Of a DNA stretch of 64,000 nt, positions 2,215-23,556 are shown piece after piece (the first letter of the stretch is position 1; every line of letters starts with the position of its first letter). A program made the position numbers and the translations under genes. The DNA lies in assembly GCA_029881495.1 (NCBI GenBank), contig JAOUMJ010000004.1, positions 28,476-92,475 of the forward strand, in the 5' to 3' direction. Origin of the DNA: Nitrospinota bacterium (GTDB taxonomy: Bacteria; Nitrospinota_A; UBA7883; JACRGQ01). Under the pieces are notes generated by a model, which worked only from the letters and a program-made list of their open reading frames with translations, was not told where the DNA came from and searched no databases.

Positions 2215-2218
2215 GAGT

Positions 2219-2812: not shown

Positions 2813-2813
2813 A

Positions 2814-3425
2814 ATGCTGGTCATAGGGCTAACCGGGGGGATAGGCTCTGGGAAATCGACGGCTCTCCGGGTCTTTAAGAAACTTGGTGCATTCATAATA
2901 GATGCCGACAGGCTCGCTCGCGATGTGGTTAAACCGGGGCGCCCCGCGTGGCAAGATATCAGGAGCCGTTTCGGCAAAACGGTATTCAATGCAAACCATA
3001 CTCTCAACAGGAAGAAGCTCGCATCGATAGTTTTCAAGGACGCCAAGGCGCTAAAGGAGCTGAACGCCATGATCCATCCCCGCGTATTCGAAGAGGAGAA
3101 GGCGCTTATAGGAAAATATTCGAAGAGCGGCAAAAATGCCGTCGTCGTAGTTGACGCGCCCCTGATGATAGAGAGCGGTTCGCATAAATGGAAAGACGTC
3201 TTGGTGGTAATGAAGGCTTCGCGCGAAAGTCAGGTTGCGCGCATTGTAAAGAACAAGGGTATGAGCAGGAAAGAGGCGGAAGCCCGCATCGCGGCGCAGA
3301 TGCCGCTGGCGGAAAAGCTCAAGTATGCCGATTTCGTTATTGAAAACGATTCCACGCTGGCAGACTGCAGGCGCAACGCGGAGAAGGTTTATCGGGAAAT
3401 TCTGAAAAGGCATCGAGGTAAATAG
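2814..3425 (+). CDS. coaE: dephospho-CoA kinase
   Basis: N-terminal IGLTGGIGSGKST P-loop typical of CoaE; ATG 2814 overlaps maf stop (ATGA-type junction). Confidence 0.88.
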   Translation: MLVIGLTGGIGSGKSTALRVFKKLGAFIIDADRLARDVVKPGRPAWQDIRSRFGKTVFNANHTLNRKKLASIVFKDAKALKELNAMIHPRVFEEEKALIGKYSKSGKNAVVVVDAPLMIESGSHKWKDVLVVMKASRESQVARIVKNKGMSRKEAEARIAAQMPLAEKLKYADFVIENDSTLADCRRNAEKVYREILKRHRGK

Positions 3426-3480
3426 TCCACTCGCGCAACTCCCGTTTACCGGTTTCCCGGAGCCGGAAATATTTCAGGAG

Positions 3481-4344: not shown

Positions 4345-4485
4345 AGAATGGAAATTCTACAATTTTTCAGCCACGGGGGGAACCTCCAGGCACCGGATGG
4401 CAAGATAATCTTGCTCCTCCATACGGTCGGGATTATGTAATAATATGAATGAAGATGTTAATCGGTATCAGTAGGGGATTTTGAA

Positions 4486-6069: not shown

Positions 6070-6245
6070 CCTCTTCCTCGCACCGCCGAAAAGAGATTGC
6101 CGCACTCTGTCCGCAATGACTGTTTAATGAACCACCCCTTGTCCTTCGTCAAGCCGGAGAAACAGCTGATAAAAGTCCGCGTTAACGGAAAAAATGGAAG
6201 AACGGATTCGATTCTGAAATAAGGAAAAACCTGTACAATAGGCGG

Positions 6246-6701
6246 ATGATAAAGACTATCGCCAGCAACAAAAAGGCGTTTCACGACTACACGATCCTTG
6301 AAAAGATCGAAGCTGGGCTTGTACTTGTGGGAACCGAGGTGAAATCACTGCGCGCTGGGAACGTGCGTCTCAGCGAGGCGTACGCCTGGCCGGTAAACGG
6401 CGAGCTTTACATACAGAACATGTTCATCGGCGAATACAAGCAGGGGAACATACACAACCACGAGCCGACGCGCGACAGGAAGCTGCTACTCAAGAAAAAG
6501 GAACTTGAAAAACTCATCGCGAAGACACAGGAAAAGGGATTGAACATCGTCCCGTTAAGGATATATTTCAAGGATGCTCTCGTGAAGCTGGAGCTTGGGC
6601 TTGGCAAAGGTAAAAAACTATACGATAAGCGCGAGACCCTCAAGAAAAAGGTGATGGATCGCGAGGCGCAGAGGAGTCTCGCCGACAGGAACAAGGGGTA
6701 G
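6246..6701 (+). CDS. smpB: SsrA-binding protein SmpB
   Basis: 151 aa; N-terminal NKKAFHDYTILEKIEAGLVLVGTEVKSLR signature of SmpB. Confidence 0.9.
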   Translation: MIKTIASNKKAFHDYTILEKIEAGLVLVGTEVKSLRAGNVRLSEAYAWPVNGELYIQNMFIGEYKQGNIHNHEPTRDRKLLLKKKELEKLIAKTQEKGLNIVPLRIYFKDALVKLELGLGKGKKLYDKRETLKKKVMDREAQRSLADRNKG

Positions 6702-6772: not shown

Positions 6773-7579
6773 TTGAGCGCACTGCATTTCGAATCTGCCG
6801 GTTTCGGCGAACCGATAATTTTCATCCACGGCTGGGGTGTGAGTTCGGCGGTTTGGAAAGAGGAGGCCGACTACTTCTCGAAGAGGTTCCGCGCAGTGAC
6901 GGTAGATCTACCGGGACACGGAAAGTCGGCGCCGGTCGACGTAGAGCTGACCATTAAGCTCTGCGCGGAGCTGTTAAAGGAGCTAATGAAAAACGAGGGG
7001 CTGGAAGGCGCGCACCTTGTCGGGTGGTCGCTTGGCGCGGAGGTTGCCGCGCGTACGGCGATGATCTCCGGAGGCAGATTGGTCCGCTCACTCGTATCGG
7101 TCGGAGGAACGCCGTGCTATGTCGCTCCGACGCAGAAGGACGAGTGGGGTATGCCTGAGGGGAAAGCAAAATATTTCCAGCGACAGCTTGAGCGCGATTT
7201 CTCGGTGAGCCTTTCGATGTTCATACACACATTCTTTGAGGCGGAGAAGGATATTTCAGCCGAGCGGGCGGCGTTCATCAAATCGGTTTTTTTCGGCGAA
7301 GATTTTCCGCCGGACCAAAGGTCTGCCATTGACCTCTTAAAAAGTCTCTATGACGAGGATCTGCGCGGGGAATTGAAGGCCTCTCCTCTCACATTGCCTC
7401 TCTTGGTATGCCATGGCGACCGTGATATGATTGTCCCGATTGGAGCGGCCGAACAATGGAGCGCTCTCCTTTCGCAGGTGAAGATCGTGAAATTTGAAAA
7501 TTGCGGGCACGCCCCGTTCCTTACAAACAGCGAGCTATTTCGGGAAACCGTTGAAAATTTCATAACGGCATTAGGATGA
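6773..7579 (+). CDS. bioH: alpha/beta hydrolase, probable pimeloyl-ACP methyl ester esterase
   Basis: IIFIHGWG and GWSLGA (GxSxG nucleophile elbow) motifs; sits directly upstream of bioC and bioD/bioA. TTG start; stop overlaps bioC ATG. Confidence 0.6.
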   Translation: MSALHFESAGFGEPIIFIHGWGVSSAVWKEEADYFSKRFRAVTVDLPGHGKSAPVDVELTIKLCAELLKELMKNEGLEGAHLVGWSLGAEVAARTAMISGGRLVRSLVSVGGTPCYVAPTQKDEWGMPEGKAKYFQRQLERDFSVSLSMFIHTFFEAEKDISAERAAFIKSVFFGEDFPPDQRSAIDLLKSLYDEDLRGELKASPLTLPLLVCHGDRDMIVPIGAAEQWSALLSQVKIVKFENCGHAPFLTNSELFRETVENFITALG

Positions 7580-8352
7580 CCAATACCGACAAGATAAAAC
7601 GGGCCTTCGGGAGGAGCGCCGGAAGCTACGAAAGATTCGGCACCTTGCAGCGCGAGGTATCCGCGCGCCTCGTGCGGGAATTCACTCCGTTTGATGGCTC
7701 CCCGCAACGCGCTCTCGACATCGGATGCGGCACAGGGTTCACTTCGACCGATATGAAGAAGCGTTGGCCCACGGCTGACATTCATCCGCTCGACCTCGCT
7801 TTGCCGATGGCGAAACGTACTCACGCGGCGGGCTTCATAAAAAGTGTCGCCGGCGACGCATCATCCCTCCCTTACGCGGAGGCTCTCTTTGATGTAGCGG
7901 TATCTTCACTCGCACTGCAGTGGGGGAGCGATTATGAAAGAATATTTTCCGAAGTCTCCCGTACGCTGAAGCCGGGGGGACTCTTTTCGTTCAGCGCCCT
8001 TCTCCCCGGAACGCTGAGGGAGCTTCGAGGCGCTTACGATTCGGCTAGCAGGGAGTGCACCGGCAAGGGGGCGAATTTCCCCTCCTTTGCTTCGATAGAG
8101 GAAATGACTGCGCCTCTTGAAACCGGGGGATTCCGCAATTTGTCGATACATGCCGAGAGCGTGGTGAAGAGCTACTCCACAGTTGAAGAGATGATGCGGA
8201 CATTGAAAGGTATAGGAGCTACAAATCCGGCAAGACCGGAAAATCCTCCGAGGCGTGACGTGCTTGCGCGGACCATGGAATTTTATCCCGGGCGCAACGG
8301 CCATGTGGAGGCGACATATGAAATCTCCTACATCTCCTGCGTGAAGGGGTAG
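7576..8352 (+). CDS. bioC: malonyl-ACP O-methyltransferase
   Basis: SAM-binding motif LDIGCGTGF; N-terminal FGRSAGSYERFGTLQREV typical of BioC; biotin gene context. Confidence 0.7.
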   Translation: MTNTDKIKRAFGRSAGSYERFGTLQREVSARLVREFTPFDGSPQRALDIGCGTGFTSTDMKKRWPTADIHPLDLALPMAKRTHAAGFIKSVAGDASSLPYAEALFDVAVSSLALQWGSDYERIFSEVSRTLKPGGLFSFSALLPGTLRELRGAYDSASRECTGKGANFPSFASIEEMTAPLETGGFRNLSIHAESVVKSYSTVEEMMRTLKGIGATNPARPENPPRRDVLARTMEFYPGRNGHVEATYEISYISCVKG

Positions 8353-8356
8353 CGGT

Positions 8357-10480
8357 ATGGATGTAAATGCTCGCGCCGGATATTTCGTCACAGGTACAGG
8401 CACAGGTGTAGGGAAGACCGTCGCGGCGGGAGCCGTCGCGTACCTTTTGAAAAAAGCGGGATACTCAACAGGGGTGATGAAACCTGTACAGACCGGGGCG
8501 AAGAGCGTAAAGGGGAAACTGGTATCGGAGGATTACGAATTTCTCCGCGCGGTAGCCGATACGGACGATCCTTATGAAACGGCCGTTCCGGCAATATTGA
8601 AAACTCCGCTCTCCCCGTATCACGCATCCCTTGCTGAAAGGGAGAAGGTGGATGTGGCCCATCTCGCGATCAGTTTCCAGAAGATGAAAGAGCGGTACGA
8701 GGTCGTAGTGGTCGAAGGGGCGGGGGGGTTGATGGTTCCGCTCACGGAAAATCTTTTCTGGCACCACTTCATCAAGATGATAGACCTTCCGTTGATAGTG
8801 GTGACAGGCGCGGAGCTTGGAATGATCCATCAGACCCTCTCCACGATCCTTTCTGCGGAGATGTATGGGCTGGAGATAGCCGGGATAATGATAATGGAGA
8901 CGAAGAAAAAGAATAATCCCGAGCCGGATATCAAGTGGCTCGAAAAAACTTCCGGCTATCCGGTGCTCGGAGTCCTCCCTCACACCTCTTCGGTTGCGGG
9001 GGCGAAGGTGAAGAAAAAGGCCTTCCACTCGCACGTTGAAAAACATATCAAGGCAAAACCTTTCGTCGATTATATCGAAAGGAAGGGGTGCGAAGCGGAG
9101 TGGAAACGGCTGAACGAAGCGGATCACAAATATGTATGGCACCCCTTTACCCAGATGGCGGATTGGGTGAAGGAGGAGACGCTTGTCATCGAATCTGCGA
9201 GCGGAATGAAGCTGAAGAGTATAACGGGGGAAGAGTATTACGACGGGCATTCCTCTTACTGGGTGAACGTGCATGGGCACGGCAATCCAGAACTTTCAAG
9301 AACGCTTGCCCGTGAAACTGCAAAGCTCGATCACTCCACATTCCTCGGATTGAGCAACAGGCCGGCGATTGATCTTGCTGAAAAGCTTGTGGAGATTACG
9401 CCAAAAGGTTTGAGCAAGGTATTCTTTTCCGATAACGGCTCCACCGCGGTGGAAGTCGGCATGAAGATGGCCGTGCAGTATTTCCGCCAGAGGGAGAAGG
9501 GGAAGAGCCGGAAGAAAAGGAAGTTCATCGCGCTTGGCGAGGCTTATCATGGCGATACGCTCGGCGCGGTTGCCGTAGGTGGAGTTGAGATATACAGAAA
9601 TATCTTCGGCCCGCTCCTTGCCGACGTGGTATTCACACCTTCGCCATACTGCTATCGGTGCCCATTGAAGAAGTTTCCGTCCGACTGTTCTCTTGCGTGC
9701 GCCGCGGAGATGGAGAAGTTGATAGTGGAGAACCACGAAGATATCGCGGCATTTGTTATAGAACCGATAGTCCAAGGGCCGGGGGGGATAATCGTGGCCC
9801 CTTCGGGCTATCTGAAAAGGGTGCGGGAGCTATGCACGAAATACGACATACTTATGCTTGCCGACGAGGTTGCCGTAGGGTTTGGCCGTACTGGAAAGAT
9901 GTTCGCCTGCGAACATGAAGAGGTTGAGCCGGATCTGATGGCGCTCTCAAAAAGCCTCGGTGCGGGACTTGTCCCGATAGCGGCGACGATGGCGACCGAT
10001 GAGATTTACGAAGCTTTTCTCGGGAAGTGGGAGGAGCAGAAGACGTTTTTTCACGGTCACACATTCACCGCCCACCCCCCGGCGTGCGCAGTCGCCCTGC
10101 AATCGCTGAATTTATACAGGAAGCAGGGGATTATCAGGCAGGTCGAGACGAAAAGCCAGGCTCTTGCCGATTCGCTTGTGAGGTTCGAGAACCTCCCGCA
10201 TGTAGGGGATATCCGGCAGAAGGGGATGATAGCCGGGATCGAACTCGTAAAGAACCGTGAAACAAAAGAACGTTTTGAGATAGCGGTTCGTGCGGGTAAC
10301 ATGGTCTCAAAGGAAGCGAGGAGGAACGGGCTGATAGTGCGCCCCCTGGGTGATACTCTGGTGCTCTTTCCGATCCTTTCCGTCAGTGAAGGCGATTTGA
10401 GAAAAATGACGGATATACTTTACAATTCGATCGCGGCTGTTACAGGTTCGTTCGAAAAGAACGAACCGTTTGTGAAATAG
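8357..10480 (+). CDS. bifunctional dethiobiotin synthetase / adenosylmethionine-8-amino-7-oxononanoate aminotransferase (BioD-BioA fusion)
   Basis: N-terminal ~230 aa BioD with P-loop GTGTGVGKT; C-terminal ~460 aa class-III aminotransferase with WHPFTQM, DEVAVGFGRTGKMFA and PLP-lysine region LSKSLGAG in one uninterrupted frame. Confidence 0.85.
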   Translation: MDVNARAGYFVTGTGTGVGKTVAAGAVAYLLKKAGYSTGVMKPVQTGAKSVKGKLVSEDYEFLRAVADTDDPYETAVPAILKTPLSPYHASLAEREKVDVAHLAISFQKMKERYEVVVVEGAGGLMVPLTENLFWHHFIKMIDLPLIVVTGAELGMIHQTLSTILSAEMYGLEIAGIMIMETKKKNNPEPDIKWLEKTSGYPVLGVLPHTSSVAGAKVKKKAFHSHVEKHIKAKPFVDYIERKGCEAEWKRLNEADHKYVWHPFTQMADWVKEETLVIESASGMKLKSITGEEYYDGHSSYWVNVHGHGNPELSRTLARETAKLDHSTFLGLSNRPAIDLAEKLVEITPKGLSKVFFSDNGSTAVEVGMKMAVQYFRQREKGKSRKKRKFIALGEAYHGDTLGAVAVGGVEIYRNIFGPLLADVVFTPSPYCYRCPLKKFPSDCSLACAAEMEKLIVENHEDIAAFVIEPIVQGPGGIIVAPSGYLKRVRELCTKYDILMLADEVAVGFGRTGKMFACEHEEVEPDLMALSKSLGAGLVPIAATMATDEIYEAFLGKWEEQKTFFHGHTFTAHPPACAVALQSLNLYRKQGIIRQVETKSQALADSLVRFENLPHVGDIRQKGMIAGIELVKNRETKERFEIAVRAGNMVSKEARRNGLIVRPLGDTLVLFPILSVSEGDLRKMTDILYNSIAAVTGSFEKNEPFVK

Positions 10481-10495
10481 CCGGTTTCGTATACC

Positions 10496-11944
10496 ATGTT
10501 AAAAAAATATTGGGAGACGGCAGGAACATTGGAGACATCCGAGAGCAAGTTTCATGACGAGTGTGCCATTTTCGGCATTTACAGGCACCCCGAAGCGGCG
10601 AACGTAACATACCTCGGCCTTTACGCGCAGCAGCACCGCGGGCAGGAGAGCTCCGGCATAGTATCATCTGACGGTTCCGACCATCATATACACCTCGGCA
10701 TGGGGCTTGTGGCAGATGTGTTCAAAAGGGAGATCATAGAAAAACTGCACGGGAATATGGCGATAGGGCACAACCGCTATTCAACCACCGGCGCGTCGAA
10801 ACTTATGAACGCACAGCCGCTGGCGATCGAATATTCCGCCGGATATCTTGCCATCGCGCACAACGGCAACCTTGTGAACGCGTCGACCGTCAGGGCGGAG
10901 CTTGAGGATATCGGCTCAATTTTCAGATCGACCATGGATACGGAGGTGATATCCCACCTTATCGCGAAGTCGAGCGAGAACACGCTCTTCAGCCGCGTGG
11001 TGGACGCACTGCATCAGGCTAGAGGGGCCTATTCGCTACTGGTTATGAACGAGGATGAAATGATAGCGGTGCGCGACCCGAAAGGGTTCAGACCGCTTGT
11101 GATGGGGAAGCTGGATGGCGCGACGGTCTTTGCATCGGAGACTTGCGCGTTCGACCTCATTGGAGCGACGTTCGAAAGGGATCTGAAACCGGGAGAGCTG
11201 GTTCATGTAACCTCCGACGGCGTGAGATCGCACTTTCCGTTCCCTCCAAAAAAGAGCTGTCAGTGCGTTTTCGAGTTCATATATTTCGCCAGGCCCGACA
11301 GCAATATCTTCGGCCGTTCAGTCCATGAGGTGAGAAAAAATTTCGGCAAGGCGCTTGCGCTTGAACTTCCGGTCGAAGCGGACATGGTGATCCCCGTGCC
11401 GGATTCCGGGGTCCCCGCCGCGATGGGTTACGCGGAAAAATCTGGCATCCCTTTCGATATGGGTTTGATAAGGAACCACTACATAGGGAGAACGTTCATC
11501 GAGCCGGAGAGCAGGATCAGGCATTTCGGCGTAAAGCTGAAACTGAATCCTATACGTTCTCTCATCGAAGGGAAAAAGGTCGTAGTCGTCGACGATTCCA
11601 TAGTGCGGGGCACCACATGCAAGAAAATAATCGGAATGGTGCGCTCAGCTGGCGCAAAAGAGGTTCATATGCGCATCAGTTCCCCCCCTACCACGCACCC
11701 CTGTTTTTACGGAATTGATACCCCGACAAAAGAGGAGCTTATCGCTTCGAACATGACCGTCGAGGAGACGAGAAAATTCATCGAGGCCGATTCGCTTGCC
11801 TACCTTACGCAGGAGAAGATGCTCTCCATATTCGGCGATGAGGCGGTCGATTTCTGCACGGCATGTTTCGACGGAAACTATCCGATAAAACGGTTCGATA
11901 TGGATATCGTTCAGGCCGAGCTTTTCGACTCAATAAGAAAATAG
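10496..11944 (+). CDS. purF: amidophosphoribosyltransferase
   Basis: N-terminal propeptide then CAIFGIY nucleophile Cys motif; C-terminal PRTase domain (VVVVDDSIVRGTT) and Cys cluster. Confidence 0.92.
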   Translation: MLKKYWETAGTLETSESKFHDECAIFGIYRHPEAANVTYLGLYAQQHRGQESSGIVSSDGSDHHIHLGMGLVADVFKREIIEKLHGNMAIGHNRYSTTGASKLMNAQPLAIEYSAGYLAIAHNGNLVNASTVRAELEDIGSIFRSTMDTEVISHLIAKSSENTLFSRVVDALHQARGAYSLLVMNEDEMIAVRDPKGFRPLVMGKLDGATVFASETCAFDLIGATFERDLKPGELVHVTSDGVRSHFPFPPKKSCQCVFEFIYFARPDSNIFGRSVHEVRKNFGKALALELPVEADMVIPVPDSGVPAAMGYAEKSGIPFDMGLIRNHYIGRTFIEPESRIRHFGVKLKLNPIRSLIEGKKVVVVDDSIVRGTTCKKIIGMVRSAGAKEVHMRISSPPTTHPCFYGIDTPTKEELIASNMTVEETRKFIEADSLAYLTQEKMLSIFGDEAVDFCTACFDGNYPIKRFDMDIVQAELFDSIRK

Positions 11945-11996
11945 CCGGTCACTGTTTCGCTGAGCCGGCTCTATAAATCGTATATAATCCCACACC

Positions 11997-12737
11997 ATGG
12001 CAAAGCTTGGAGTAAACGTGGATCATGTCGCTACCCTTAGGCAGGCTCGTCTTATCGACTATCCCGATCCGGTTGCGGCGGCGAAAATTGCGATTGAGCA
12101 TGACGTCTCATGCATCACTGTGCACCTGCGCGAGGACAGAAGGCACATTCAGGATAGAGACGTATACCGTATCAGGGAGCTTGAGAATTGCAGGCTGAAC
12201 CTGGAGATGGCGGCGTCCGAGGAGATCATAAAAATTGCGCTTGATGTAAAGCCGGATCAGGTGACCCTCGTGCCGGAGAGGCGGGCGGAGTTGACTACCG
12301 AAGGGGGGCTTGATGTCCTTTCCAGGATCGATTTCTACAGGGAGCTTGTCGCACGATTCAGGGATGCCGGAATACCGGTATCGCTTTTTATAGATACGGA
12401 TGATAAACAGGTAGAGGCTTCATCCAGGACGGAGGCTGGCGCCGTGGAGATAAACACAGGAAAATATTCGGAAGCCGATTCAAAAAGTAAACAGGCCGAG
12501 AGACTGAACGATGTCCGTCGCGCAGTTGAATCGGCCCACGCGCTCGGCATGGTTGTTCATGCGGGGCATGGGCTTCACTACGAAAACGTCTCACCCGTTG
12601 CCGCGTTGCCATGGGTGGATGAACTTAACATTGGTCATTCGATAGTGTCGCAGGCGGTCTTTGTCGGTTTTTCAAAGGCTGTTCTTTCGATGAAAGAGTT
12701 GATCGAAAAAGCGTCCGCGGGCGCAAAGGGGGTTTGA
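11997..12737 (+). CDS. pdxJ: pyridoxine 5'-phosphate synthase
   Basis: N-terminal KLGVNVDHVATLRQAR signature of PdxJ; 246 aa. Confidence 0.9.
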   Translation: MAKLGVNVDHVATLRQARLIDYPDPVAAAKIAIEHDVSCITVHLREDRRHIQDRDVYRIRELENCRLNLEMAASEEIIKIALDVKPDQVTLVPERRAELTTEGGLDVLSRIDFYRELVARFRDAGIPVSLFIDTDDKQVEASSRTEAGAVEINTGKYSEADSKSKQAERLNDVRRAVESAHALGMVVHAGHGLHYENVSPVAALPWVDELNIGHSIVSQAVFVGFSKAVLSMKELIEKASAGAKGV

Positions 12738-13477: not shown

Positions 13478-13752
13478 TTTGGAACTCCTCCCGGTTTATG
13501 TAAGTTGAATTATGGTAATTTACCCTTGCCTTGAGGAAGTGTCAAATTAATTAAAAAAGTTCATTGAATTGCCATGAGCTATTTAAACATCTGAAAGTGA
13601 AGCGTTTTTGGAGATATCTGGAAATGTGCCTAAGGAAATAATGTTATGTATGATAACAGGTAGAATTGAGTAGCGGCTCTGGTTTGACCAGTGAACAGTA
13701 AACGCTGAATATATTGTTGAATGTTCAGCAACATTTCAGTAATATCCCAAAG

Positions 13753-14361
13753 GTGGAAACCAACGAAGATATCAAGGGTAAAATTCTCGAGGCGGCGATG
13801 GCGAGGTTTATCCATTACGGTTTTCATAAAACTACAATGGCGGAAATTGCCAAGGATTGCGGCATGTCAGCTGCGAACCTCTACCGGTTTTTCCAGAACA
13901 AGGCCGAGATAATCGTCACACTTGCGCTGAATCATTTTGAGGTGACATGGGAGAAGATGGAGGCGATCGTTGGCAACCGTACCCTTGCTTCAGCGGAAAA
14001 ACTTGAAAGCTTCTTTGTTCATCTCTTCAGATGCAACCGCGATCTGTTGCGCGAAAAGCCGAATATTTCAGAGGTGGTCGAGTTCTTCCTTAATGAACGC
14101 CCGGACATCGTAAAGGAGATGGTTTCCCGCGAAATCGTTACGCTGGAAAAAATTCTCGTAGATGGAAATGATTCGGGCGAATTCGCCATTGAGGATACCG
14201 CGGAAACCGCCAGGAATTTCAGGATGGCGTTTACTCCGTTTATCGTCACGCCGTTCCTTCTTCATATTATGGATAACAAGGTCATCGACCATGGCGACCT
14301 GGAAACGAGGCTGAAGAGTCTGCTGAAGCTCCTTTTGAAAGGTATATCCGCGTCGAATTAA
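13753..14361 (+). CDS. TetR/AcrR family transcriptional regulator
   Basis: N-terminal HTH region ILEAAMARFIHYGFHKTTMAEIAKDCGMSAANLYRFFQNK; GTG at 13753 with aaagg RBS; upstream of efflux genes. ORF track start is 13714. Confidence 0.8.
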   Translation: METNEDIKGKILEAAMARFIHYGFHKTTMAEIAKDCGMSAANLYRFFQNKAEIIVTLALNHFEVTWEKMEAIVGNRTLASAEKLESFFVHLFRCNRDLLREKPNISEVVEFFLNERPDIVKEMVSREIVTLEKILVDGNDSGEFAIEDTAETARNFRMAFTPFIVTPFLLHIMDNKVIDHGDLETRLKSLLKLLLKGISASN

Positions 14362-14403: not shown

Positions 14404-15936
14404 ATGATTAGTACATTCAGGAACGGAAAATATATTCTCTTTGCGGCCCCCTTGTTCGCTGTCGCGGTCGGATTCCTCGGAACCGCTGAATCGGCAAAGG
14501 GGGCGGGAGAGAGGATCATCTCTTCAGCCAGAGATATCAGGAATATTATCGGGAGCAACAATTACGATGTAAAGATCCTAGGCGAGCAGGTAAAGCGCGC
14601 GTCGGCTGTCGTGGAAGGGATCGAAGGGGCCTACTTCCCGATGCTTTCGCTCGACACCAGCATCATGGACGACAGAAAACAGCCGCTGAGCAATTTTCAG
14701 CCTGCGAGGGTGGAGAACACGCACTGGGGCGCGACGCTTATTCAGAGAACACCGATGGGGATCAATTTCTCGGCAGGGGTAACGAACGACACGGCTAAAC
14801 TTTACCAGTCCGACCCTCCAAACGATTTTCTTCCATATCCGGCAACGTTCAACCAGCCGGTGGTCTTCCTGAAGATGGAGATGGACATTCTTCAGGATCT
14901 CATGGGCTTTGTGAGCTTCAAGGAGTGGGATCAGTACCGGATAGACGAAGAGGTGTCGAAGATGCAGGTCGAACTTATAAAGCACAAGCTGTTCACCAGC
15001 AGTTCGGCGCTTCTCTGGAATACCAGGGAGATGATGGAGATGAAGTCGATCATCGAGGAGATGGTGACGAGGTTTGAAAAACTTGAAAAGGATGTTGATG
15101 CCAAGGTGCGCAAGAGGATTGCCGAGCCTGGGGACATCTACAAGCTCAAAGCGCTCGTCGCCCAGAGGAAGGCGGACGTTGTGGCGCTAGAGAGGACAGT
15201 GCGGGAGATAGAAAAATCGATCGCCGAAATTCTTTCTGTGCAGGAGGGGATTCGCTTCATGCCTGACAGGACGCTTGCGTCGCTGGAAAAGGGGATAGAC
15301 GCTTGCGAACAGGATATTCTCAGCCGGAAGGAGATGGATACCGCCTGGAGCAGGGAGTTCGACGTTCTTGAAAAAAATATCAGGCGCGGAGAGCTTGAAA
15401 AGGATATCAGGTACAGGAAGGCGCTCCCCGACCTGAAACTCGTTGGCTCCTACGCGAAGACCGGCACCGATTCAACCTTCGGAGACGCGTTTTCAAATAT
15501 CGTGGACCAGGACAAGCCGCAGGTATATGTCGGTTTGAATTTTTCCTGGCCGCTTTCCTCCAGCGTTGCGAAATCAAGGCGGGTATTCGGCGATACCGCG
15601 CTCGCAACCCAGGGGATGACATACGGCAAATTCTACGAAGGGAGCAGGGTTTTTCACGAATCGACTATCAGGAAAATCGGGCATCTGAGGGAAGAGGGGA
15701 AACTTTCAGATGAAGCTGTCGGATACGGCAGAAAACAGATAGACGATCTGCACAAGAGGTACAGGCAGGGGCGGGTAAGCATGTTCGAGCTTGTACAGGA
15801 GGAGAGCTCCGTGCTTCAAAGCGAGTTGACCCGCAAGAGGGTATGGGTTGAGAGGATAAATAATATCTACCAGTACCTTGGCCGCTTCGACAGGCTTAGT
15901 TGCGCCGATAGCGATCTTACGGCTGGAAGAGATTAA
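14404..15936 (+). CDS. TolC-family outer membrane efflux protein (putative)
   Basis: Signal peptide, long coiled-coil segments, ~510 aa; stop 3 nt before RND pump start. Family call is by architecture, not a diagnostic motif. Confidence 0.55.
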   Translation: MISTFRNGKYILFAAPLFAVAVGFLGTAESAKGAGERIISSARDIRNIIGSNNYDVKILGEQVKRASAVVEGIEGAYFPMLSLDTSIMDDRKQPLSNFQPARVENTHWGATLIQRTPMGINFSAGVTNDTAKLYQSDPPNDFLPYPATFNQPVVFLKMEMDILQDLMGFVSFKEWDQYRIDEEVSKMQVELIKHKLFTSSSALLWNTREMMEMKSIIEEMVTRFEKLEKDVDAKVRKRIAEPGDIYKLKALVAQRKADVVALERTVREIEKSIAEILSVQEGIRFMPDRTLASLEKGIDACEQDILSRKEMDTAWSREFDVLEKNIRRGELEKDIRYRKALPDLKLVGSYAKTGTDSTFGDAFSNIVDQDKPQVYVGLNFSWPLSSSVAKSRRVFGDTALATQGMTYGKFYEGSRVFHESTIRKIGHLREEGKLSDEAVGYGRKQIDDLHKRYRQGRVSMFELVQEESSVLQSELTRKRVWVERINNIYQYLGRFDRLSCADSDLTAGRD

Positions 15937-15939
15937 CCG

Positions 15940-18900
15940 ATGATCACATATTTCATAAAAAATCCGAAGGTCGTTGCTCTCATAACTCTTGCGATCGTGA
16001 TTGGGGGGATTATCAGTCTGTTGGCGATGAGGCGGGAGGCTTTCCCCAACGTCGATTTTGCCATGGCGACGATCACAACATTCTATCCGGGTGCCACGCC
16101 GGAAGATGTTGAGATACAGGTAACAAAAAAAATAGAAGACGAGTTGAGGGGCATAGAGGGGATAAAGCAGACGCGCTCCATCAGCCAGGAGGGGTATTCC
16201 GAGATAACCATTGTCGTAGATATAGATAATGTGAGCTCAAGGGAAGTGCTGGACGAAGTACAGCGAACCACCGACAGGGTGGTCGACCTCCCGGCTGAAC
16301 TCCCCGATCCCCCTCATTTCAACGAGATCAAGACGAAGCATTTCCCGGTTCTGGAGGTTTCGGTTCTCGGCGATGTTGACGAGGAGAAGTTAAGAAAGGT
16401 TGCCGATCAGCTGGAAGATGTTTTCGACATGAACAGCGGTGTGGCCGCGGTAAACAAGATCGGGTACAGGGAGCGCGAATACAGGATCTATATAGATCCC
16501 GTAAAAATGGGGAGATATCACGTAAGTTTCAACGAGGTGATACGGGCGATCGGCGCGAGCAATGTCGATACTCCCGGCGGCATATTCGAAAGCCGCCCGT
16601 TCAAGAAATCGGTCAGAACAGTAGGGTCGCTCAAGGAAGCCGAGATGTTTCTCGACGTTGTGGTTCGCACGAATCTTTCGGGCCAGGTCATACGCGTGCG
16701 TGATATCGCCACAGTGGACGATACGTATGAAGATCCGAGGGTGGTGGCGAAGACCAACGGCAAGCCGAGCATAATCCTGGTTGCCATGAAAAAGGAGCAT
16801 ACCGACATACTGAAATTGACCAAAGAGCTCAAGGAAGCGATTGCCGAATTCAGGAAGGGATTGCCGGAAGGGGTTGGCGTAATTGTCAGCAACGACGAGT
16901 CGGAAAGGACAAGGACACGCCTCGACATCATAATTTCCAATTCGATCATCGGATTTTTTCTCATGCTCATTGCCCTTATCGTATTCCTTGATCTGAGGAA
17001 CGCGCTTGTAACGTCTCTGGCGGCGCCAATCGTTATCCTTGTCACGCTCATTCTCATGAGCTTTTTAGGAATTACGTTCAACATGATCTCAATGCTGGCG
17101 GTGATAATCGCGCTCGGCATGTTCGTGGATAACAGCATCGTCATATCAGAAAATATTTTCAGGCTGAAGCAGACAGGATTGTCGATGGAAGAGGCGGCGA
17201 TGAAGGGGACGATAGCGATAGCCGCTCCCATAACGGCGACGGTACTAACTACTATCGCGGCGTTTGTTCCGATGATGGTTACCTCGGGCGTAATGGGGCA
17301 GTTCATTATTGCCATTCCGATAGTGGTCACATGCTCACTCCTTGCCTCCCTGTTCGATTCCTTTTTCCTCCTCCCGGCAAGGATAATCGCGCTGGACAGG
17401 GAAGCGGTCATAAAGGAATCACGGTGGTTCGCCTGGTGGAGACATCTGTTTGAAAGTTTCGTAAGGTTCTTCATCAGATACAAGTGGTCTTCGATCGCAC
17501 TTGCGAATCTTCTCCTTATTGGCGCACTGATATTTGCCGTGAAAAAGATAGACTTCATTCTCTTTCCGCCGGAAGGGGTCGACAGGTTTGCTGTCAAATA
17601 TCTTGCCCACCCCGGAACTCCCATTGAGGATGTGAACAGGGGGATAGAGAAAGTTGAAAACGCTCTGATGAGTCTTCCCTCCGATGAAGTGTACGCCATC
17701 ACTACGAGAACCGGCGTCCAGCAGATGGGCCTTGGTGACCCTCTATCCAGGGTCGGGGACAACGTGGGGATGATACTCGTATACCTGACGCCGGAGAACG
17801 AACGGAAAAGAACCGCGGCGGAAATAATATCCTGGCTGAGGGAGAATGTAGATATCTACGAGCCGTTTGAAATGATCCAGTTCGAGACCCTGGCGATGGG
17901 CCCACCTGTAGGAAAGGCGGTTACGGTCTCTGTGCAGGGGGATGACCTCGAAAAGCTGAAGGAACTAGCCGGACAGATATGGAAGTTCCTTTCCGATATC
18001 GACGGCGTGACGGACATCGATCAGGATCTAAAGCCCGGCATAAGGCAGTTGCGCGTTGAGATAAATAAGGGTGTTCGCGAAGAGATAGGCCTTACCGTAG
18101 CAGAGATCGCGGCCGCTCTTAGAACCGCGCAGGAAGGGGTCATCGCTTCAAAGGTCAGGAAGTATGATGATGATATTGATGTCCGCGTCCTTTTTTCAAA
18201 GGAGGCGAGAGGGAGCATGACCTCGCTGGAAAACCTTCTCATATCGGATGTGAGGGGAAACCTCATCCCTCTTCATAAAGTTGCGAACATCAGGGAGGTG
18301 GAGGGGCCGGAGCCGCGACGGCATTTTGATTACAGGCGTTCCATCACTATTACCGCCGGTGTCGACACCGATAAGGTCACTTCGGTGGAGGTGAACGCCG
18401 CGCTGAGAAAGGCGTTCGCTTTCATCCCGGAGAAGAATCCAGGTTATGTGCTGAAATTCGGAGGCGAAGAAGAGAGCACGATGGAGTCGATGTCGAGCCT
18501 TGCGCGCGCGATGGTCTTTGCGATCATCGGGATATTCTCGATACTCGTGGCGCTGTTTGGCTCGTACGCTCTGCCGTTTTTGATAATGTTCTCCATCCCT
18601 TTGGGATTCGTAGGGGTAATAGTAGGGTTTGCGGCCCACGACAAGCCTTTCGGCTTTCTGGCGATTATCGGGATGATAGGTCTTTCCGGCGTTATCGTAA
18701 ATTCGGCGATAGTGCTAATCGCCTTCATTGAGGACATGAGGAAAAATACTAAATTAAGTCTCGAAGAGTGTCTCGTACAGAGCGCCGGCACAAGGCTCCG
18801 CCCGATACTGCTGACGACGTTCACGACGGTGCTCGCGCTTTTCCCGACCGCGTACGGGATAGGAGGATTCGATCCGATGCTAGTTCCGATGACGCTTGCC

Positions 18901-19038
18901 ATGGCTTGGGGTCTCCTCTTTGGAACTCTCCTCACGCTACTTGTAATACCGTGCGGATACGCAGTGATAGAAGATGTAATCCAGTTCTCTAATAGAGTGC
19001 GGGGTAAAAAAGGGGAAAAGCATCCGGTAAAAATATAA
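15940..19038 (+). CDS. RND efflux transporter permease (AcrB/CzcA-like)
   Basis: 1032 aa, 12-TM architecture with two large periplasmic loops; N-terminal FIKNPKVVALITLAIVIGGI typical of AcrB family. Confidence 0.9.
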   Translation: MITYFIKNPKVVALITLAIVIGGIISLLAMRREAFPNVDFAMATITTFYPGATPEDVEIQVTKKIEDELRGIEGIKQTRSISQEGYSEITIVVDIDNVSSREVLDEVQRTTDRVVDLPAELPDPPHFNEIKTKHFPVLEVSVLGDVDEEKLRKVADQLEDVFDMNSGVAAVNKIGYREREYRIYIDPVKMGRYHVSFNEVIRAIGASNVDTPGGIFESRPFKKSVRTVGSLKEAEMFLDVVVRTNLSGQVIRVRDIATVDDTYEDPRVVAKTNGKPSIILVAMKKEHTDILKLTKELKEAIAEFRKGLPEGVGVIVSNDESERTRTRLDIIISNSIIGFFLMLIALIVFLDLRNALVTSLAAPIVILVTLILMSFLGITFNMISMLAVIIALGMFVDNSIVISENIFRLKQTGLSMEEAAMKGTIAIAAPITATVLTTIAAFVPMMVTSGVMGQFIIAIPIVVTCSLLASLFDSFFLLPARIIALDREAVIKESRWFAWWRHLFESFVRFFIRYKWSSIALANLLLIGALIFAVKKIDFILFPPEGVDRFAVKYLAHPGTPIEDVNRGIEKVENALMSLPSDEVYAITTRTGVQQMGLGDPLSRVGDNVGMILVYLTPENERKRTAAEIISWLRENVDIYEPFEMIQFETLAMGPPVGKAVTVSVQGDDLEKLKELAGQIWKFLSDIDGVTDIDQDLKPGIRQLRVEINKGVREEIGLTVAEIAAALRTAQEGVIASKVRKYDDDIDVRVLFSKEARGSMTSLENLLISDVRGNLIPLHKVANIREVEGPEPRRHFDYRRSITITAGVDTDKVTSVEVNAALRKAFAFIPEKNPGYVLKFGGEEESTMESMSSLARAMVFAIIGIFSILVALFGSYALPFLIMFSIPLGFVGVIVGFAAHDKPFGFLAIIGMIGLSGVIVNSAIVLIAFIEDMRKNTKLSLEECLVQSAGTRLRPILLTTFTTVLALFPTAYGIGGFDPMLVPMTLAMAWGLLFGTLLTLLVIPCGYAVIEDVIQFSNRVRGKKGEKHPVKI

Positions 19039-19110: not shown

Positions 19111-21408
19111 ATGGCGAAGCTCAATTTTGGTTCGAAACTAGCGCTTAAGGTAATAAAGTACCGTTTCCAGATCATCATACTCACCGTTCTTTCAGTAGCG
19201 GTCTCATCCGCCGGTCTTGCATATCTCACCTTCTCCAGCGACAGCAGGGCGTATTTCGGTCCCGATAATCCACAGCTAAAGGCTCTCGAAAAGCTGGAGA
19301 ATACATATTCTAGGGACGACTCCGTTCTCCTTGCGATTGCGCCGAAGGACGGTAACATCTTTTCCGCCAGGACACTTTCGATTATCGGCGAGATAACCGA
19401 TGAATTCTGGAAGCTCCCCTTCTCCAGCAGGGTGGAATCCCTCACCAACTACCAGCATACTTCGGCAGACGGCGACGAGCTTATAGTGGAGAACCTTGTA
19501 AAGGAGGCCGATGAACTGACGGGCGCTGACCTTGACCGCATAAGGGAGATCGCCGTAAACGAACCGTTCCTGAAGGATCGCCTTGTTTCTTCCAAAGGGA
19601 GCGTTGCCGGCGTCGTAGCTCTTTTCAGAATGCCGGAGAATAAGAACGAGGCGACAAAGGAGGTCGTTGGGAAAGTTCGTGCGTATGTGAAGGAGGTTAA
19701 AAAGAAATACCCCGACATGGAAATATACCTGGTCGGGAGCCTGATGGTGGATACCGCTTTCGCGGAAGCGGGGGAGGACGACATGAGGAGCCTCATCCCT
19801 ATCATGTTCGCGATAATGGTTTTCTTCATGTGGGTGATGCTAAGGTCGGTTACTGCAATGCTTGTCACCACGCTCGTAATTATTTTTTCGTCGGTCGTCT
19901 CCATGGGGATTGCGGGCTGGCTCGGAATCGTGCTTACCGCTCCGTCGGCGAATTCGCCTATAGTCATACTCACGCTTTCGATAGCGGATTCGATACATGT
20001 CCTCGTTACCATGCTGCAGGAGATACGAAAAGGGAGATCGCGCGAAGAGGCGATAGTGGAATCGATGCGCATAAACCTTTCTCCGGTGTTTCTGACCACC
20101 ATTACCACTTCGATAGGTTTTCTCAGCATGAACTTTTCGGATTCTCCCCCTTTCTGGGATCTCGGAAATATAGTATCGATCGGGGTGCTGGTAGCTTTTA
20201 TATATTCGGTTACGTTTCTCCCTGCGATGATGGCCATCCTCCCGATCAAGGTGGGAGAAGAGAAAACTTTCGGCCCGCCGATAATAGACCGGTTCGCCGA
20301 TTTTGTCGTATCCAAAAGTACGGCTCTTATGTGGGGTATGGCTCTTTTTATAATTTTTTCCGTATCGGGCATCTCCAGGATAGACGTGAACGATCTGTAC
20401 CTCGATTATTTCGGAAAGAAGTTCCAGTTCAGGAAGGATACCGATTTCATTGTGGCAAATCTCACCGGTGTAAGCATGGTCGAATACGACCTCTCGTCGG
20501 GTGAAGAGGGGGGGGTATCCTCTCCAGAATATCTTGACACTCTTGAGCGTTTCACTGTTTGGCTCCTTGCCCAGCCGGAAGTAAAACAGATAAGCGGATT
20601 CCATGACGTCATGAAGAGGCTGAACAAAAGCATGCATGGCGACGACCCCGCCTATTACAAGGTACCGGACAGGAGGGATCTTGCCGCGCAGTACCTCCTT
20701 CTGTACGAGATGTCGCTCCCGTTCGGGCTCGATATGAACAACATGATAAACGTCGACAAGTCCTCCACAAGGTTCAGGATATCGCTTATCGACATTTACA
20801 ACCGGGAGATACGGCAGTTCGAAAGGAGGGCGACCGCGTGGCTCGAAGAGAATGCTCCGCCGTCGATGCATGTTGACGGCACAGGGATGTCGATCATCTT
20901 CGCGCACATCACCGACAGGACTATCAACTCAATGTTCAGGGGTACCGCCTTCGCCCTCTTTCTTATATCTGGGCTACTCATACTCGCGTTCATGAATCTC
21001 CGCATAGGGTTGATAAGCCTCCTGCCGAACATAGTTCCGGCGTTGATGACATTCGGTCTATGGGGTTATACGGTGAGCCAGGTCGGTCTCGCCGCTTCGG
21101 TCATCGCGGCGCTCAGCCTCGGGATAGTGGTGGACGACACGATACACTTTCTCTCGAAATATCTTAGGGCAAGAAAGGAGCTCGGCCTAAGTCCAGAAAT
21201 GGCGGTGAGGTACTCCTTCCATACGGTCGGCAGGGCGCTTGTAATAACTTCAGTCATACTCGTTGCCGGATTCGGGATATTGACCCTCTCAAATTTCAAG
21301 GTGAATTCAAACATAGGCACCCTCACCGCGATAGCGATAGCGATAGCGCTCATAGTCGATTTTCTTTTCCTTCCCGCCCTTCTGCTTAAACTTGAAAAGA
21401 GAAGATGA
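19111..21408 (+). CDS. MMPL/SSD-type RND superfamily exporter (HpnN-like)
   Basis: 765 aa; two repeats each of a periplasmic domain followed by a 5-6 TM bundle, typical of MMPL exporters. Confidence 0.75.
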   Translation: MAKLNFGSKLALKVIKYRFQIIILTVLSVAVSSAGLAYLTFSSDSRAYFGPDNPQLKALEKLENTYSRDDSVLLAIAPKDGNIFSARTLSIIGEITDEFWKLPFSSRVESLTNYQHTSADGDELIVENLVKEADELTGADLDRIREIAVNEPFLKDRLVSSKGSVAGVVALFRMPENKNEATKEVVGKVRAYVKEVKKKYPDMEIYLVGSLMVDTAFAEAGEDDMRSLIPIMFAIMVFFMWVMLRSVTAMLVTTLVIIFSSVVSMGIAGWLGIVLTAPSANSPIVILTLSIADSIHVLVTMLQEIRKGRSREEAIVESMRINLSPVFLTTITTSIGFLSMNFSDSPPFWDLGNIVSIGVLVAFIYSVTFLPAMMAILPIKVGEEKTFGPPIIDRFADFVVSKSTALMWGMALFIIFSVSGISRIDVNDLYLDYFGKKFQFRKDTDFIVANLTGVSMVEYDLSSGEEGGVSSPEYLDTLERFTVWLLAQPEVKQISGFHDVMKRLNKSMHGDDPAYYKVPDRRDLAAQYLLLYEMSLPFGLDMNNMINVDKSSTRFRISLIDIYNREIRQFERRATAWLEENAPPSMHVDGTGMSIIFAHITDRTINSMFRGTAFALFLISGLLILAFMNLRIGLISLLPNIVPALMTFGLWGYTVSQVGLAASVIAALSLGIVVDDTIHFLSKYLRARKELGLSPEMAVRYSFHTVGRALVITSVILVAGFGILTLSNFKVNSNIGTLTAIAIAIALIVDFLFLPALLLKLEKRR

Positions 21409-21455
21409 CCGGATGCCGGTTTTTAAAAAGTGTAGAATGGGTGAGCAGCGAAGAG

Positions 21456-22289
21456 ATGGCGCGCCCTTCATATTTTAATAGGAGAATTGCCGTGAGATTA
21501 TTTGCGATTCCGTTTTTTATTTTCCTGACACTCGTCGCGCCTGCGACAGCAGAGACGCCGGAGGAGAAAGGGCTCGCCATAGCGCTGGAAGCGGAGAAGC
21601 GCGACAGGGGATGGGGGGATTCCACATCCGAGCTTGAGATGATCCTTATGAACCGGCATGGGGAGACCAGTATTCGCCAGATGAGGGGGGAGTCGCTTGA
21701 AGTGGAGGGTGACGGCGACAAATCGCTGATGGTTTTCGATAATCCCCGCGACGTGAAAGGCTCCGCCATGCTTACATGGTCGCACAAGAATGGGGACGAC
21801 GACCAGTGGCTCTACCTTCCGGCCCTTAAACGTGTGAAGAGGATATCGTCTTCCAGTAAATCGGGCTCCTTCATGGGTTCGGAGTTCTCATATGAAGACC
21901 TCTCCAGCAGGGAGGTGGAGAAGTACAGCTACCGCTTCCTTCGGGAAGAACCGTGCCCGTGCGAAGAGCTGAAATCGCTTACCTGTTTTGTCTCTGAAAG
22001 TTTTCCGGTGGATAAAAGCTCCGGATACACAAGAATTGTCAGCTGGCTCGATACGAACGACTACCGGTCGTGCAAGGTTGAGTTCTACGACAGGAAGAGC
22101 TCCCATTTGAAAACTCTTCTGTCCAGCAATTATAAAAGATTTCTCGACAAATTCTGGAGGCCGATGAGGCTCGACGTCACGAATCACCAGTCGGGGAAGA
22201 GTACAACGCTGGAGTTCAAGGAATACAAATTTAAAACGGGATTAAAAGATTCGGATTTCAATCAGAACGCTCTCATGAGATTCAAGTAG
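21456..22289 (+). CDS. periplasmic LolA-like / outer-membrane lipoprotein-sorting-like protein (putative)
   Basis: Signal peptide (VRLFAIPFFIFLTLVAPATA); soluble ~250 aa beta-rich protein; start overlaps MMPL stop. Family assignment tentative. Confidence 0.4.
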   Translation: MARPSYFNRRIAVRLFAIPFFIFLTLVAPATAETPEEKGLAIALEAEKRDRGWGDSTSELEMILMNRHGETSIRQMRGESLEVEGDGDKSLMVFDNPRDVKGSAMLTWSHKNGDDDQWLYLPALKRVKRISSSSKSGSFMGSEFSYEDLSSREVEKYSYRFLREEPCPCEELKSLTCFVSESFPVDKSSGYTRIVSWLDTNDYRSCKVEFYDRKSSHLKTLLSSNYKRFLDKFWRPMRLDVTNHQSGKSTTLEFKEYKFKTGLKDSDFNQNALMRFK

Positions 22290-22305
22290 GGGTGTGGGAG
22301 CGGGT

Positions 22306-23556
22306 ATGAAAGGCGTTGTCGGTCCGGCTGTTCGGTTGATGTGGGGCGTTCTATTTTTCATTGCTCTTCTCCACGTAGAATCGCATGCCGCGGAGATCTC
22401 CGGTTATATCGAAGGGGAGGCCAGGATATTTCCATCTTCTCCTCTTTACGACGGGCAGGAGAACCACTCCGGCTCAGTTGCGGTACTGTCGGAGTTTTAC
22501 CAGGAGCTCGGCCCAACCTCCGCAATGACTATCACGCCATTTGCCAGGTTGGATTCGGGTGATCCGAACAGGACCCATTTCGACCTGAGGGAGTTCTTCT
22601 TCCTTCTTCATGGGGAGTGGTGGGAGGTTCGCGCCGGTATCGACAAGGTCTTCTGGGGTGTGACGGAATCCGTGCACCTTGTCGACATAGTGAACCAGAC
22701 AGACATGCTTGAATCGTTTGACGGTGAGGAGAAGTTCGGTCAGCCGATGCTGAAACTCTCAATTGCGGGAGACGTCAAAGGGATCGATCTTTTCATTCTC
22801 CCCCTCTTCAGGGAGAGAAATTTTGCAGGCGAGGGGGGGCGTTTGCGCAGTGAAATACTTGTGGAAGGGGACGAGGCCGCTTATGAAAGCGTAAACAGGG
22901 AAAAGAGTGTCGATTTTGCGGTGCGTTACAGCTATACGTCGGGGGGATTCGATCTTGGCATTTCGTATTTCAAGGGGACCGGCAGGGAGCCGTCGCTTCG
23001 CCTTAAACGGAACGACATGGGATTTCCAGAGATAGACGCGAAAGGGAACATTCATCTCTTCCCGTATTATGAGCAGATCACGCAAGCGGGGGTCGATATG
23101 CTGCTGGTGCTCGATGCGTGGCTGCTGAAACTGGAGTCGATATACAGAACGGGGCAATCCGACAGGGACTGGATGAAAAACGATTTCGCATCTTCGGCGC
23201 TCGGCATTGAATACACGGTATACGGGGTCGCCGGTAGCGGCGCCGATGTAGGCATTCTCGGGGAGTGGGTTTACGACGACAGGGGTGATTCCGCCGTCTC
23301 CGCGCTCAACAACGACCTGATGGCGGGGCTGAGGTTTTCACTAAATGACGTTTCAGGCTCCACCGCGCTCCTTGGATATATCCATGATTATAAAAATAGC
23401 TCTTCTTTCCTCACGCTGGAGGGGAGCAGAAGGCTAAATGACCATCTGAAGCTGGAGCTGCAGGGATTTTACTTCCTCTTCTCCCCGGAGGATGATCCGT
23501 CATGGGTGATAAGGAGAGACTCATTCATGGAGGCTCGGCTCGTCTGGTATTTTTAG
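22306..23556 (+). CDS. putative outer membrane beta-barrel protein
   Basis: Signal peptide (LFFIALLHVESHAA), alternating beta-strand pattern, terminal aromatic (ends ...RLVWYF). Confidence 0.45.
   Translation: MKGVVGPAVRLMWGVLFFIALLHVESHAAEISGYIEGEARIFPSSPLYDGQENHSGSVAVLSEFYQELGPTSAMTITPFARLDSGDPNRTHFDLREFFFLLHGEWWEVRAGIDKVFWGVTESVHLVDIVNQTDMLESFDGEEKFGQPMLKLSIAGDVKGIDLFILPLFRERNFAGEGGRLRSEILVEGDEAAYESVNREKSVDFAVRYSYTSGGFDLGISYFKGTGREPSLRLKRNDMGFPEIDAKGNIHLFPYYEQITQAGVDMLLVLDAWLLKLESIYRTGQSDRDWMKNDFASSALGIEYTVYGVAGSGADVGILGEWVYDDRGDSAVSALNNDLMAGLRFSLNDVSGSTALLGYIHDYKNSSSFLTLEGSRRLNDHLKLELQGFYFLFSPEDDPSWVIRRDSFMEARLVWYF

Follow-up and report, generated by a model that had tools for sequence, protein, structure and literature searches.

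An RND efflux permease paired with a TolC-fold channel, with no periplasmic adaptor gene beside it, in a Nitrospinota bacterium and at related loci

A periplasmic adaptor bridges the gap between an inner-membrane transporter and its exit duct, besides opening the channel and activating the transporter; adaptors are also drug targets. To our knowledge, they are held to be indispensable for pumps of the resistance-nodulation-division (RND), ABC and MFS families that work with a TolC-type duct. Here we describe a gene pair that has no adaptor gene next to it, located on a stretch of 64,000 nucleotides from a Nitrospinota bacterium (assembly GCA_029881495.1, contig JAOUMJ010000004.1, positions 28,476 to 92,475; the whole stretch is denoted the window). 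The pair consists of an RND permease (here denoted the pump) and, directly upstream, a divergent outer-membrane channel protein (denoted X). The described systems AcrAB-TolC and MexAB-OprM likewise consist of a full-length ACR_tran permease and a TolC-fold channel with helices of about 70 residues, and are likewise under TetR-family control. They differ from the pair described here in that no adaptor is encoded in cis in any member of its clade (35/35), in that this pump is remote from the solved pumps, with Asp-Asn in transmembrane segment 4 (TM4) and no Lys in TM10, and in that this channel has an extra beta-hairpin.

The solved systems that match the pump best in sequence are TriABC (6vej) and MexJK (9xwg) of Pseudomonas aeruginosa, which belong to the same broad 'RND_permease_2'-like group. 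Both are adaptor-dependent, TriABC having two adaptors, and both carry Asp-Asp in TM4 and Arg at the position of AcrB K940, whereas the pump carries Asp-Asn and Val. AcrD of E. coli and Salmonella is, as here, an RND gene without an adjacent adaptor gene; it reportedly functions together with a trans-encoded AcrA or AcrE. AcrD is not known to have a channel gene of its own and is a close AcrB paralogue, so it is able to share AcrA. In contrast, the pump gene described here adjoins or overlaps, throughout an old clade, a channel gene that is dedicated to it and highly divergent. The nearest precedent, likened by concept and not by sequence, is BesABC of Borrelia burgdorferi. BesA lacks the alpha-hairpin, which makes tip-to-tip bridging impossible, and direct contact between the RND protein and the channel has been proposed (PMC4446572). 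The Bes operon still has an adaptor gene, whereas the locus described here has none.

On the + strand, the genes of the locus follow each other in the order TetR, X, RND permease, HAE3/MMPL transporter, LolA_like protein, 420-aa protein and sigma-54 activator (Table 1). The open reading frame (ORF) of X (14398/14404-15936) encodes 512 aa counted from a TTG, or 510 aa from the ATG at 14404. As the original prediction described, it ends three nucleotides before the pump gene. The junction reads ...GGAAGAGAT TAA ccg ATG, with GGAAGAG as a Shine-Dalgarno-like stretch, and the pump is probably translationally coupled to X. The spacers of 42 nt between TetR and X and of 3 nt between X and the pump, together with the six-frame ORF list, leave no space for an additional gene. 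The search for an adaptor covered the 64-kb window and flanks of about 8-10 kb of related loci. Pfam detected no HlyD-type domain in the genes of the cluster, X and the three genes 3' of the pump included, nor in ten more envelope-type ORFs of the window. An adaptor hidden Markov model (HMM), built locally and seeded with Pfam-verified HlyD_D23 proteins, gave zero matches when all window ORFs of 100 aa or more were searched. The same Pfam adaptor models that miss X (HlyD_D23, HlyD_3 and Biotin_lipoyl_2) reach E 1e-26 with genuine adaptors of sister loci. Pfam, the adaptor HMM and the ORF list therefore agree with the prediction: there is no adaptor ORF in the interval from TetR to the pump, nor one that follows the pump. 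The TetR gene, which starts at the TTG at 13714 or at some later start codon, encodes both the N-terminal helix-turn-helix and the C-terminal ligand-binding domain expected of TetR efflux regulators, and its product is the presumed ligand-responsive regulator of the X-pump pair. A scan for inverted repeats around TetR found none above background, and promoter and terminator scans of the window likewise gave no signals above background.

Table 1. Features of the X-pump locus, in window coordinates (aa, residue numbers; DN and DC, docking subdomains of the pump)
Feature	Position	Strand	Basis
TetR-family repressor gene	13714..14361	+	Pfam TetR_N (E 1.6e-14, 54 bits) and TetR_C_27 (40 bits)
X, divergent outer-membrane factor, TolC fold	14404..15936	+	AlphaFold2 model, Foldseek
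X, repeat-1 insert (aa 93-152)	14680..14859	+	DSSP of the AlphaFold2 model, family alignment
Periplasmic tip of X helices H7/H8, YRQGRVSM (aa 453-460)	15760..15783	+	Family conservation
RND permease (pump), 1032 aa, HAE-1-like	15940..19038	+	ACR_tran, full length
DN docking subdomain, tip of its vertical hairpin (aa 238-252, ~AcrB 245-259)	16651..16695	+	Conservation
TM4 D397-N398 (VDNS)	17128..17133	+	AcrB D407 kept, D408 replaced by Asn
Tip of the hairpin of the DC docking subdomain (aa 765-778, AcrB 788-801)	18232..18273	+	Conservation
HAE3/MMPL-type RND transporter, 765 aa	19111..21408	+	
LolA_like protein, 294 aa	21405..22289	+	
420-aa protein	22294..23556	+	

An AlphaFold2 (AF2) model of X, computed from a 60-sequence alignment, reached a per-residue confidence (pLDDT) of 92 and a predicted template-modelling score (pTM) of 0.84. 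When the model was compared with the PDB by Foldseek, the top 44 matches were all outer-membrane factors (OMFs), with E down to 6e-14; TolC, ST50, CusC, SilC, CmeC, OprM, OprN, VceC and MtrE were among them. The best structural match was CusC (3pik), with a TM-score of 0.75, a root-mean-square deviation of 4.4 A and about 10% identity. A model from a five-sequence alignment was mediocre (pLDDT 67), yet it too matched only OMFs. Because the AF2 model has the TolC fold and matches OMFs alone, X is, by its predicted structure, a TolC-fold outer-membrane channel and not an adaptor. The helices of the model span residues 166-236 (71 residues), 242-277, 386-454 (69 residues) and 460-494, and the 71 and 69 residues of the long helices correspond to the length of the TolC long helices (about 68 residues). 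The N-terminus of X, read by eye from the translation, starts with MISTFRNGK, followed by a hydrophobic stretch and ..LGTA/ES, and reads as a Sec signal peptide without a lipobox Cys.

Sequence comparison scarcely recognises X. Pfam detects a single weak OEP stretch (aa 323-389, 46 bits), which is part of repeat 2; in X homologues OEP covers the whole of repeat 2, and repeat 1 is never matched by Pfam. A search of X against NCBIfam gave nothing above noise, and the X family profile found no OMF among the PDB sequences. A protein identical to X carries the NCBI label 'TolC family protein [Nitrospinota bacterium]'. TolC, CusC and OprM (TC 1.B.17, Pfam OEP) have the same two-repeat alpha/beta-barrel fold as X. 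X differs from them by its identity of only about 10%, by a repeat 1 unseen by Pfam, by a 60-residue insert and by an Arg right after the tip-2 turn. The original prediction had considered that the 512-aa protein might be a membrane-fusion protein or might not be a canonical TolC. With its weak OEP match, no HlyD match and a predicted OMF fold, nothing identifies the protein as a membrane-fusion protein, and the doubt about a canonical TolC was justified.

The pair recurs in distant bacteria. X has few close homologues. An exhaustive HMMER search returned 22 representative clusters at E <1e-30, followed by a continuum of OMFs. In every placed contig that extends past the X homologue (L001-L003, L006-L009, L012), an RND gene lies directly 3' of it; all these pairs lack an adaptor, and identity to X goes down to about 20%. 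These loci include a Deltaproteobacteria metagenome-assembled genome (MAG; L001) and a complete Pseudobdellovibrionaceae genome (L012). A scan of genome contigs recovered only the already known locus. With an alignment of the pump family, we fetched 80 metagenome loci, a sample thus drawn by resemblance to this pump and by motifs, which may bias the TM4 and TM10 statistics. Genes were called by a simple longest-ORF procedure and classed by channel, pump and adaptor HMMs, and the 80 full-length RND proteins were placed in a distance-based neighbour-joining tree without bootstrap support.

In this tree the window pump belongs to a clade of 35 of the 80 pumps (clade A). An X-type channel gene lies directly upstream of the pump gene in 30 of the 35 loci, at gaps of mostly -4 to +10 nt and often with overlap; the remainder are four orphan pumps (L011, L058, L023, L028) and one locus ended by a contig edge. 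Not one adaptor was found at the 35 clade-A loci, in about 420 kb of flanks (about 8 kb per side), whereas in the sister clades an adaptor gene lies directly upstream in 34 of 41 loci and anywhere in the locus in 35 of 41 (Fisher p = 9e-16). Since the absence recurs in 35/35 related loci as against 6/41 in the sister clades, it is not due to chance. Lack of a cis-encoded adaptor is a trait of the whole RND/OMF clade and not a local accident. Pfam analysis of 102 clade-A neighbour proteins showed no HlyD family among the families with at least two members, TetR_N being the commonest, and in an all-against-all BLAST of 312 neighbour ORFs TetR was the sole family common to many loci (12 loci; upstream or downstream). 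Clade-A loci therefore conserve no third component of 100 aa or more beside TetR. Members of the clade come from MAGs labelled Nitrospinota, Deltaproteobacteria, Legionellales and Bdellovibrionota, and orphan pumps are found in Leptospira. The Leptospira-type orphans L011 and L058 (e.g. L. perdikensis) lie after a DsbA gene and before a DUF2804 gene on the opposite strand, without a channel or adaptor gene nearby.

The clade-A channels share two features that set them apart from TolC. The 60-residue insert in repeat 1 holds the most conserved motifs of the family (FQPAR, the invariant G119 and QSDPPN..LPYP) and is modelled, with pLDDT 84-98, as an extra transmembrane beta-hairpin. Strands are predicted in repeat 1 at 80-90, 102-115, 120-134 and 147-161, four as against two in TolC; with two strands in repeat 2, the predicted number per protomer is six, versus the canonical four. 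Extrapolation from this monomer model suggests that the X trimer is possibly an 18-stranded barrel. All solved OMFs that we know of have 12 strands in the trimeric barrel. The insert is present in 28/28 aligned clade-A channels and is missing in TolC and in the L044-type channels of adaptor-containing operons. The second feature is R457 at the periplasmic tip of helices H7/H8, one residue past the turn Gly/Ala (Q-G/A-R), which is invariant in 60 family sequences. It is kept in all clade-A channels and missing in TolC and in the clade-B channels, which belong to adaptor-containing operons.

One sister-clade locus (L076) has an RND gene at 1368-4412 followed by a 548-aa, insert-bearing X-like channel, and adaptor genes at 118-1356 and 7385-8581. 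Because L076 combines the insert with adaptors, the X-type insert alone does not imply adaptor independence. This locus could be an evolutionary intermediate. X itself has a pair of Cys residues, C301 (15304-15306) and C500 (15901-15903), linking the equatorial region with the C-terminal tail, and their conservation in several subclades suggests a disulfide. We considered the pair as a family-wide trait and dropped it, as on wider comparison it is restricted to some subclades. DsbA or VKOR-DsbA genes adjoin some of the related pumps (L009 12619-13836; L011 7263-7937; L058 7144-7803).

In one relative the two components are encoded by a single gene. P0221 (L093 1119-5702) is a protein of 1527 aa in which an RND pump (1-1028) is joined in frame to an X-type channel (1055-1502). 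The join consists of a short linker and then a signal-peptide-like segment ending ..TRAQA/QSE, a cleavage-type site (AQA/Q), and P0221 may be a precursor that is cut by signal peptidase. The gene has TetR upstream and no adaptor nearby, and it is present on contigs from independent samples.

The pump itself is of canonical length and shows no large indels relative to its relatives; residues 1-1010 match positions 1-1020 of the 1021 of the ACR_tran profile, with 609 bits, as expected of the full ACR_tran architecture with 12 TM segments and two large periplasmic loops. Its closest NCBIfam model, NF033617 (RND_permease_2), has a cut-off of 1250 bits, which the pump misses with 514 bits; the closest solved structures are TriC (6vej), MexK, ZneA and MdtB (phmmer E 6e-85 to 9e-71). 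Identity of the pump is 51-58% to the pumps that accompany X homologues and about 27-30% to its nearest RND relatives on plasmids; a search for an X homologue on plasmids found none. Besides the Asp-Asn of TM4, the pump has Val at the AcrB K940 position in TM10 (V920-N921, ~18694-18702) and keeps R954 (= R971), so the canonical proton relay D407/D408/K940/R971 is not complete. Asp-Asn in TM4 and a Lys-less TM10 are found in most of the 120 best database relatives of the pump, and by these residues the AcrB-type proton relay is altered in the pump and most of these relatives. We rejected this signature as a mark of adaptor-less pumps: adaptor-linked sister clades have it too, and the DNA pattern used in the scan for relatives may have selected for it. 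Clade-specific pump extensions toward the channel were also sought and rejected, as only a 4-residue insertion at 595-598 was seen.

We compared the conservation of alignment columns within the adaptor-less clade with that within the sister clades, and the maximum was tested by permutation. The strongest clade-specific constraint in the whole protein is in segment 238-250/252 of the pump, at the tip of the DN hairpin (permutation p = 0.0016). Here the clade has a motif of fixed length, V-R-(S/T/A)-N-x-S-G, whereas in the sister clades its length and its sequence both differ from locus to locus. In the C-terminal periplasmic half, the segment ranked first, though not significant by itself, is the tip of the DC hairpin, which also has a fixed length in the clade and is variable in the sisters. 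The pump was mapped onto an AcrB sequence that was validated by the positions of D407, D408, K940, R971, T978, D256, D795, F178 and F628. On this mapping, the DN hairpin corresponds to the hairpin that bears AcrB D256, and the DC hairpin to the one around AcrB D795. In AcrB these hairpins crown the docking domain and were proposed to contact TolC in the original direct-docking model (PMC4446572). Direct complementarity of the AcrB and TolC apices and in vivo cross-links between the two proteins are on record (PMC4446572).

The best reading of these data, to which we give an even chance, is that X and the pump form a two-component pump in which the channel would dock directly, without an adaptor. 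The pair would then be a TetR-controlled two-gene trans-envelope efflux module, with an inner-membrane RND pump driven by protons and, as its dedicated outer-membrane channel, X; the tight gene packing would be consistent with 1:1 co-translation of the two. The X trimer would sit tip to crown on the pump trimer (3:3), its six helical tips meeting six hairpins, in the geometry of direct docking once proposed for AcrB-TolC. The R-x-N motif of the pump hairpin and the invariant Arg of the channel tip would be part of the interface and would serve in binding and gate opening, and a periplasmic adaptor would be unneeded. Control by TetR or MarR suggests that the substrates are small hydrophobic or amphiphilic compounds. 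With a little less confidence than in direct docking at this locus, we propose that this may be a widespread and hitherto undescribed two-component RND architecture of Gram-negative efflux, whose TolC-fold channel, its barrel enlarged to a predicted 18 strands, would be docked directly on the hairpins and which would exist in one lineage as a fused precursor.

Several points weigh against direct docking. We know of no RND-OMF system shown to be functional without an adaptor, and in model systems sealing of the duct and activation of the pump are both tasks of the adaptor. Neither the pump nor the channel helices depart from canonical length, with no clade-specific insertion in the pump, and because of these lengths a directly docked complex would span a periplasm of only about 17 nm. 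Clade A is nested among adaptor-dependent relatives, in a tree that has no bootstrap support and whose loci were chosen for their resemblance to this pump, and in L076 an insert-bearing channel shares its operon with two adaptors. The conservation signal of the DC hairpin is not significant alone in the permutation test, and the DN hairpin could be constrained by another partner instead. The adaptor search covered no more than about 8 kb on each side of the loci.

This scope, the window and flanks of about 8 kb, leaves room for a conventional tripartite pump that borrows its adaptor from another efflux operon, at some other place in the genome, an explanation that we consider a real though clearly lesser possibility. 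No characterised RND-OMF pump is known to do without an adaptor, and AcrD of E. coli and Salmonella, supplied with AcrA or AcrE in trans, offers a precedent. The canonical pump architecture without compensating insertions, the use of adaptors by the sister clades and the X-like channel within the two-adaptor operon of L076 would all fit a borrowed adaptor. It accounts poorly for an adaptor nearby in 0/35 loci as against 35/41 in relatives: a dedicated channel has been kept packed against the pump while channel identity fell to about 20%, yet the one part that must fit both is never co-located. Neither the RND-OMF fusion gene nor the clade-specific crown motif is predicted by an adaptor in trans. 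The original prediction had set an adaptor elsewhere beside a system that works differently; since cis-adaptor absence is clade-wide, the comparative data favour the latter, while the former keeps some weight.

An improbable further explanation is that X and the pump are co-expressed and form no single sealed duct, the pump moving a substrate (e.g. a lipid or some other component of the envelope) from the inner membrane to the periplasm or to a carrier, and X being a separate outer-membrane exit or insertion site. The HAE3/MMPL transporter 3' of the pump in the window and in L003, to which the window adds a LolA-like carrier and a probable barrel in a lipid-transport-like arrangement, would suit such a role, as would the four clade members without a channel gene (L011, L058, L023, L028) and the extra hairpin of X, which suggests a modified barrel. 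However, the downstream MMPL/LolA-like module is not conserved across the clade, and TetR/MarR control is typical of xenobiotic efflux. That the two genes lie tightly adjacent or overlap, and that they are fused in one relative, speaks for a stoichiometric complex, and the conserved crown motif for a partner atop the pump. That the whole case is an annotation artefact, X being a divergent adaptor or an adaptor ORF having been missed, might be thought from the one weak OEP stretch that Pfam sees in X and from the absence of OMFs among the PDB sequences found with the family profile. It is refuted by the TolC topology of the X model, the 44 top structural matches of which are all OMFs, by the absence of HlyD, lipoyl and beta-barrel adaptor domains from X, and by spacers of 42 and 3 nt that leave no space, with the adaptor HMM empty in the window.

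Some genes adjacent to clade-A pumps were considered as candidate partners. Proteins of about 95 aa encoded 5' of X in L006 and L007, and one of 116 aa in L005, were rejected as mini-adaptors: they are acidic and lack signal peptides. In L006 (7646-7930) and L007 (189-482), which represent one subclade, this ~95-aa protein is conserved (M.IVF.G.HTA.EL...FEVYKS...L.LVIDNTK) and stands just upstream of the channel, where it replaces TetR. In L012, a 346-aa lipoprotein of adaptor size (11179-12219) overlaps the 3' end of the pump gene by 23 nt. It was rejected as an adaptor, as it has no match in Pfam or to the adaptor HMM and no homologue in other clade-A loci; it could be a lineage-specific accessory protein. 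Upstream of the pair in the same genome, at 5798-6535, a 245-aa protein combines a signal peptide with a C-terminus that is barrel-like (..GWFL) and has no Pfam match and no homologue in the other loci. A link to quinones or isoprenoids, considered because of neighbouring genes for a UbiE-like methyltransferase, a polyprenyl synthase and VKOR, was also rejected: these neighbours are not conserved, and the methyltransferase is of a generic class-I type. The 'UbiE-like' methyltransferase groups with a methyltransferase ORF of the window that was read, from its sequence and neighbours, as BioC.

Downstream of the pump in the window, the HAE3/MMPL-type transporter gene follows directly, and the LolA_like gene overlaps it by 4 nt. 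The 420-aa protein has a signal peptide, no Pfam match and the C-terminus ..WYF, and is probably an outer-membrane barrel. Together, these three genes (19111-23556) look like a second adaptor-less RND module, one that passes a hydrophobic cargo to a periplasmic carrier. The pump of L003 also has an MMPL-like gene 3' of it (22% identity, E 1e-13); the other relatives do not.

In the literature searched, whose coverage is incomplete and which included a term search of a Chem Rev 2021 review, we found no description of adaptor-less OMF-RND operons, of the X channel subfamily or of RND-OMF fusions. Even if an adaptor acts in trans, the strict, clade-wide split between the adaptor gene and a dedicated pair of channel and pump would be new, as would a channel subfamily with a predicted six strands per protomer. 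If X does dock directly on the pump, a direct-docking geometry that had been abandoned would be used in nature, and the opening of an exit duct by its pump could be studied in a minimal system of two proteins. Counts of efflux systems in genomes would also change, as annotation pipelines give these genes the common labels 'TolC family' and 'efflux RND permease'.

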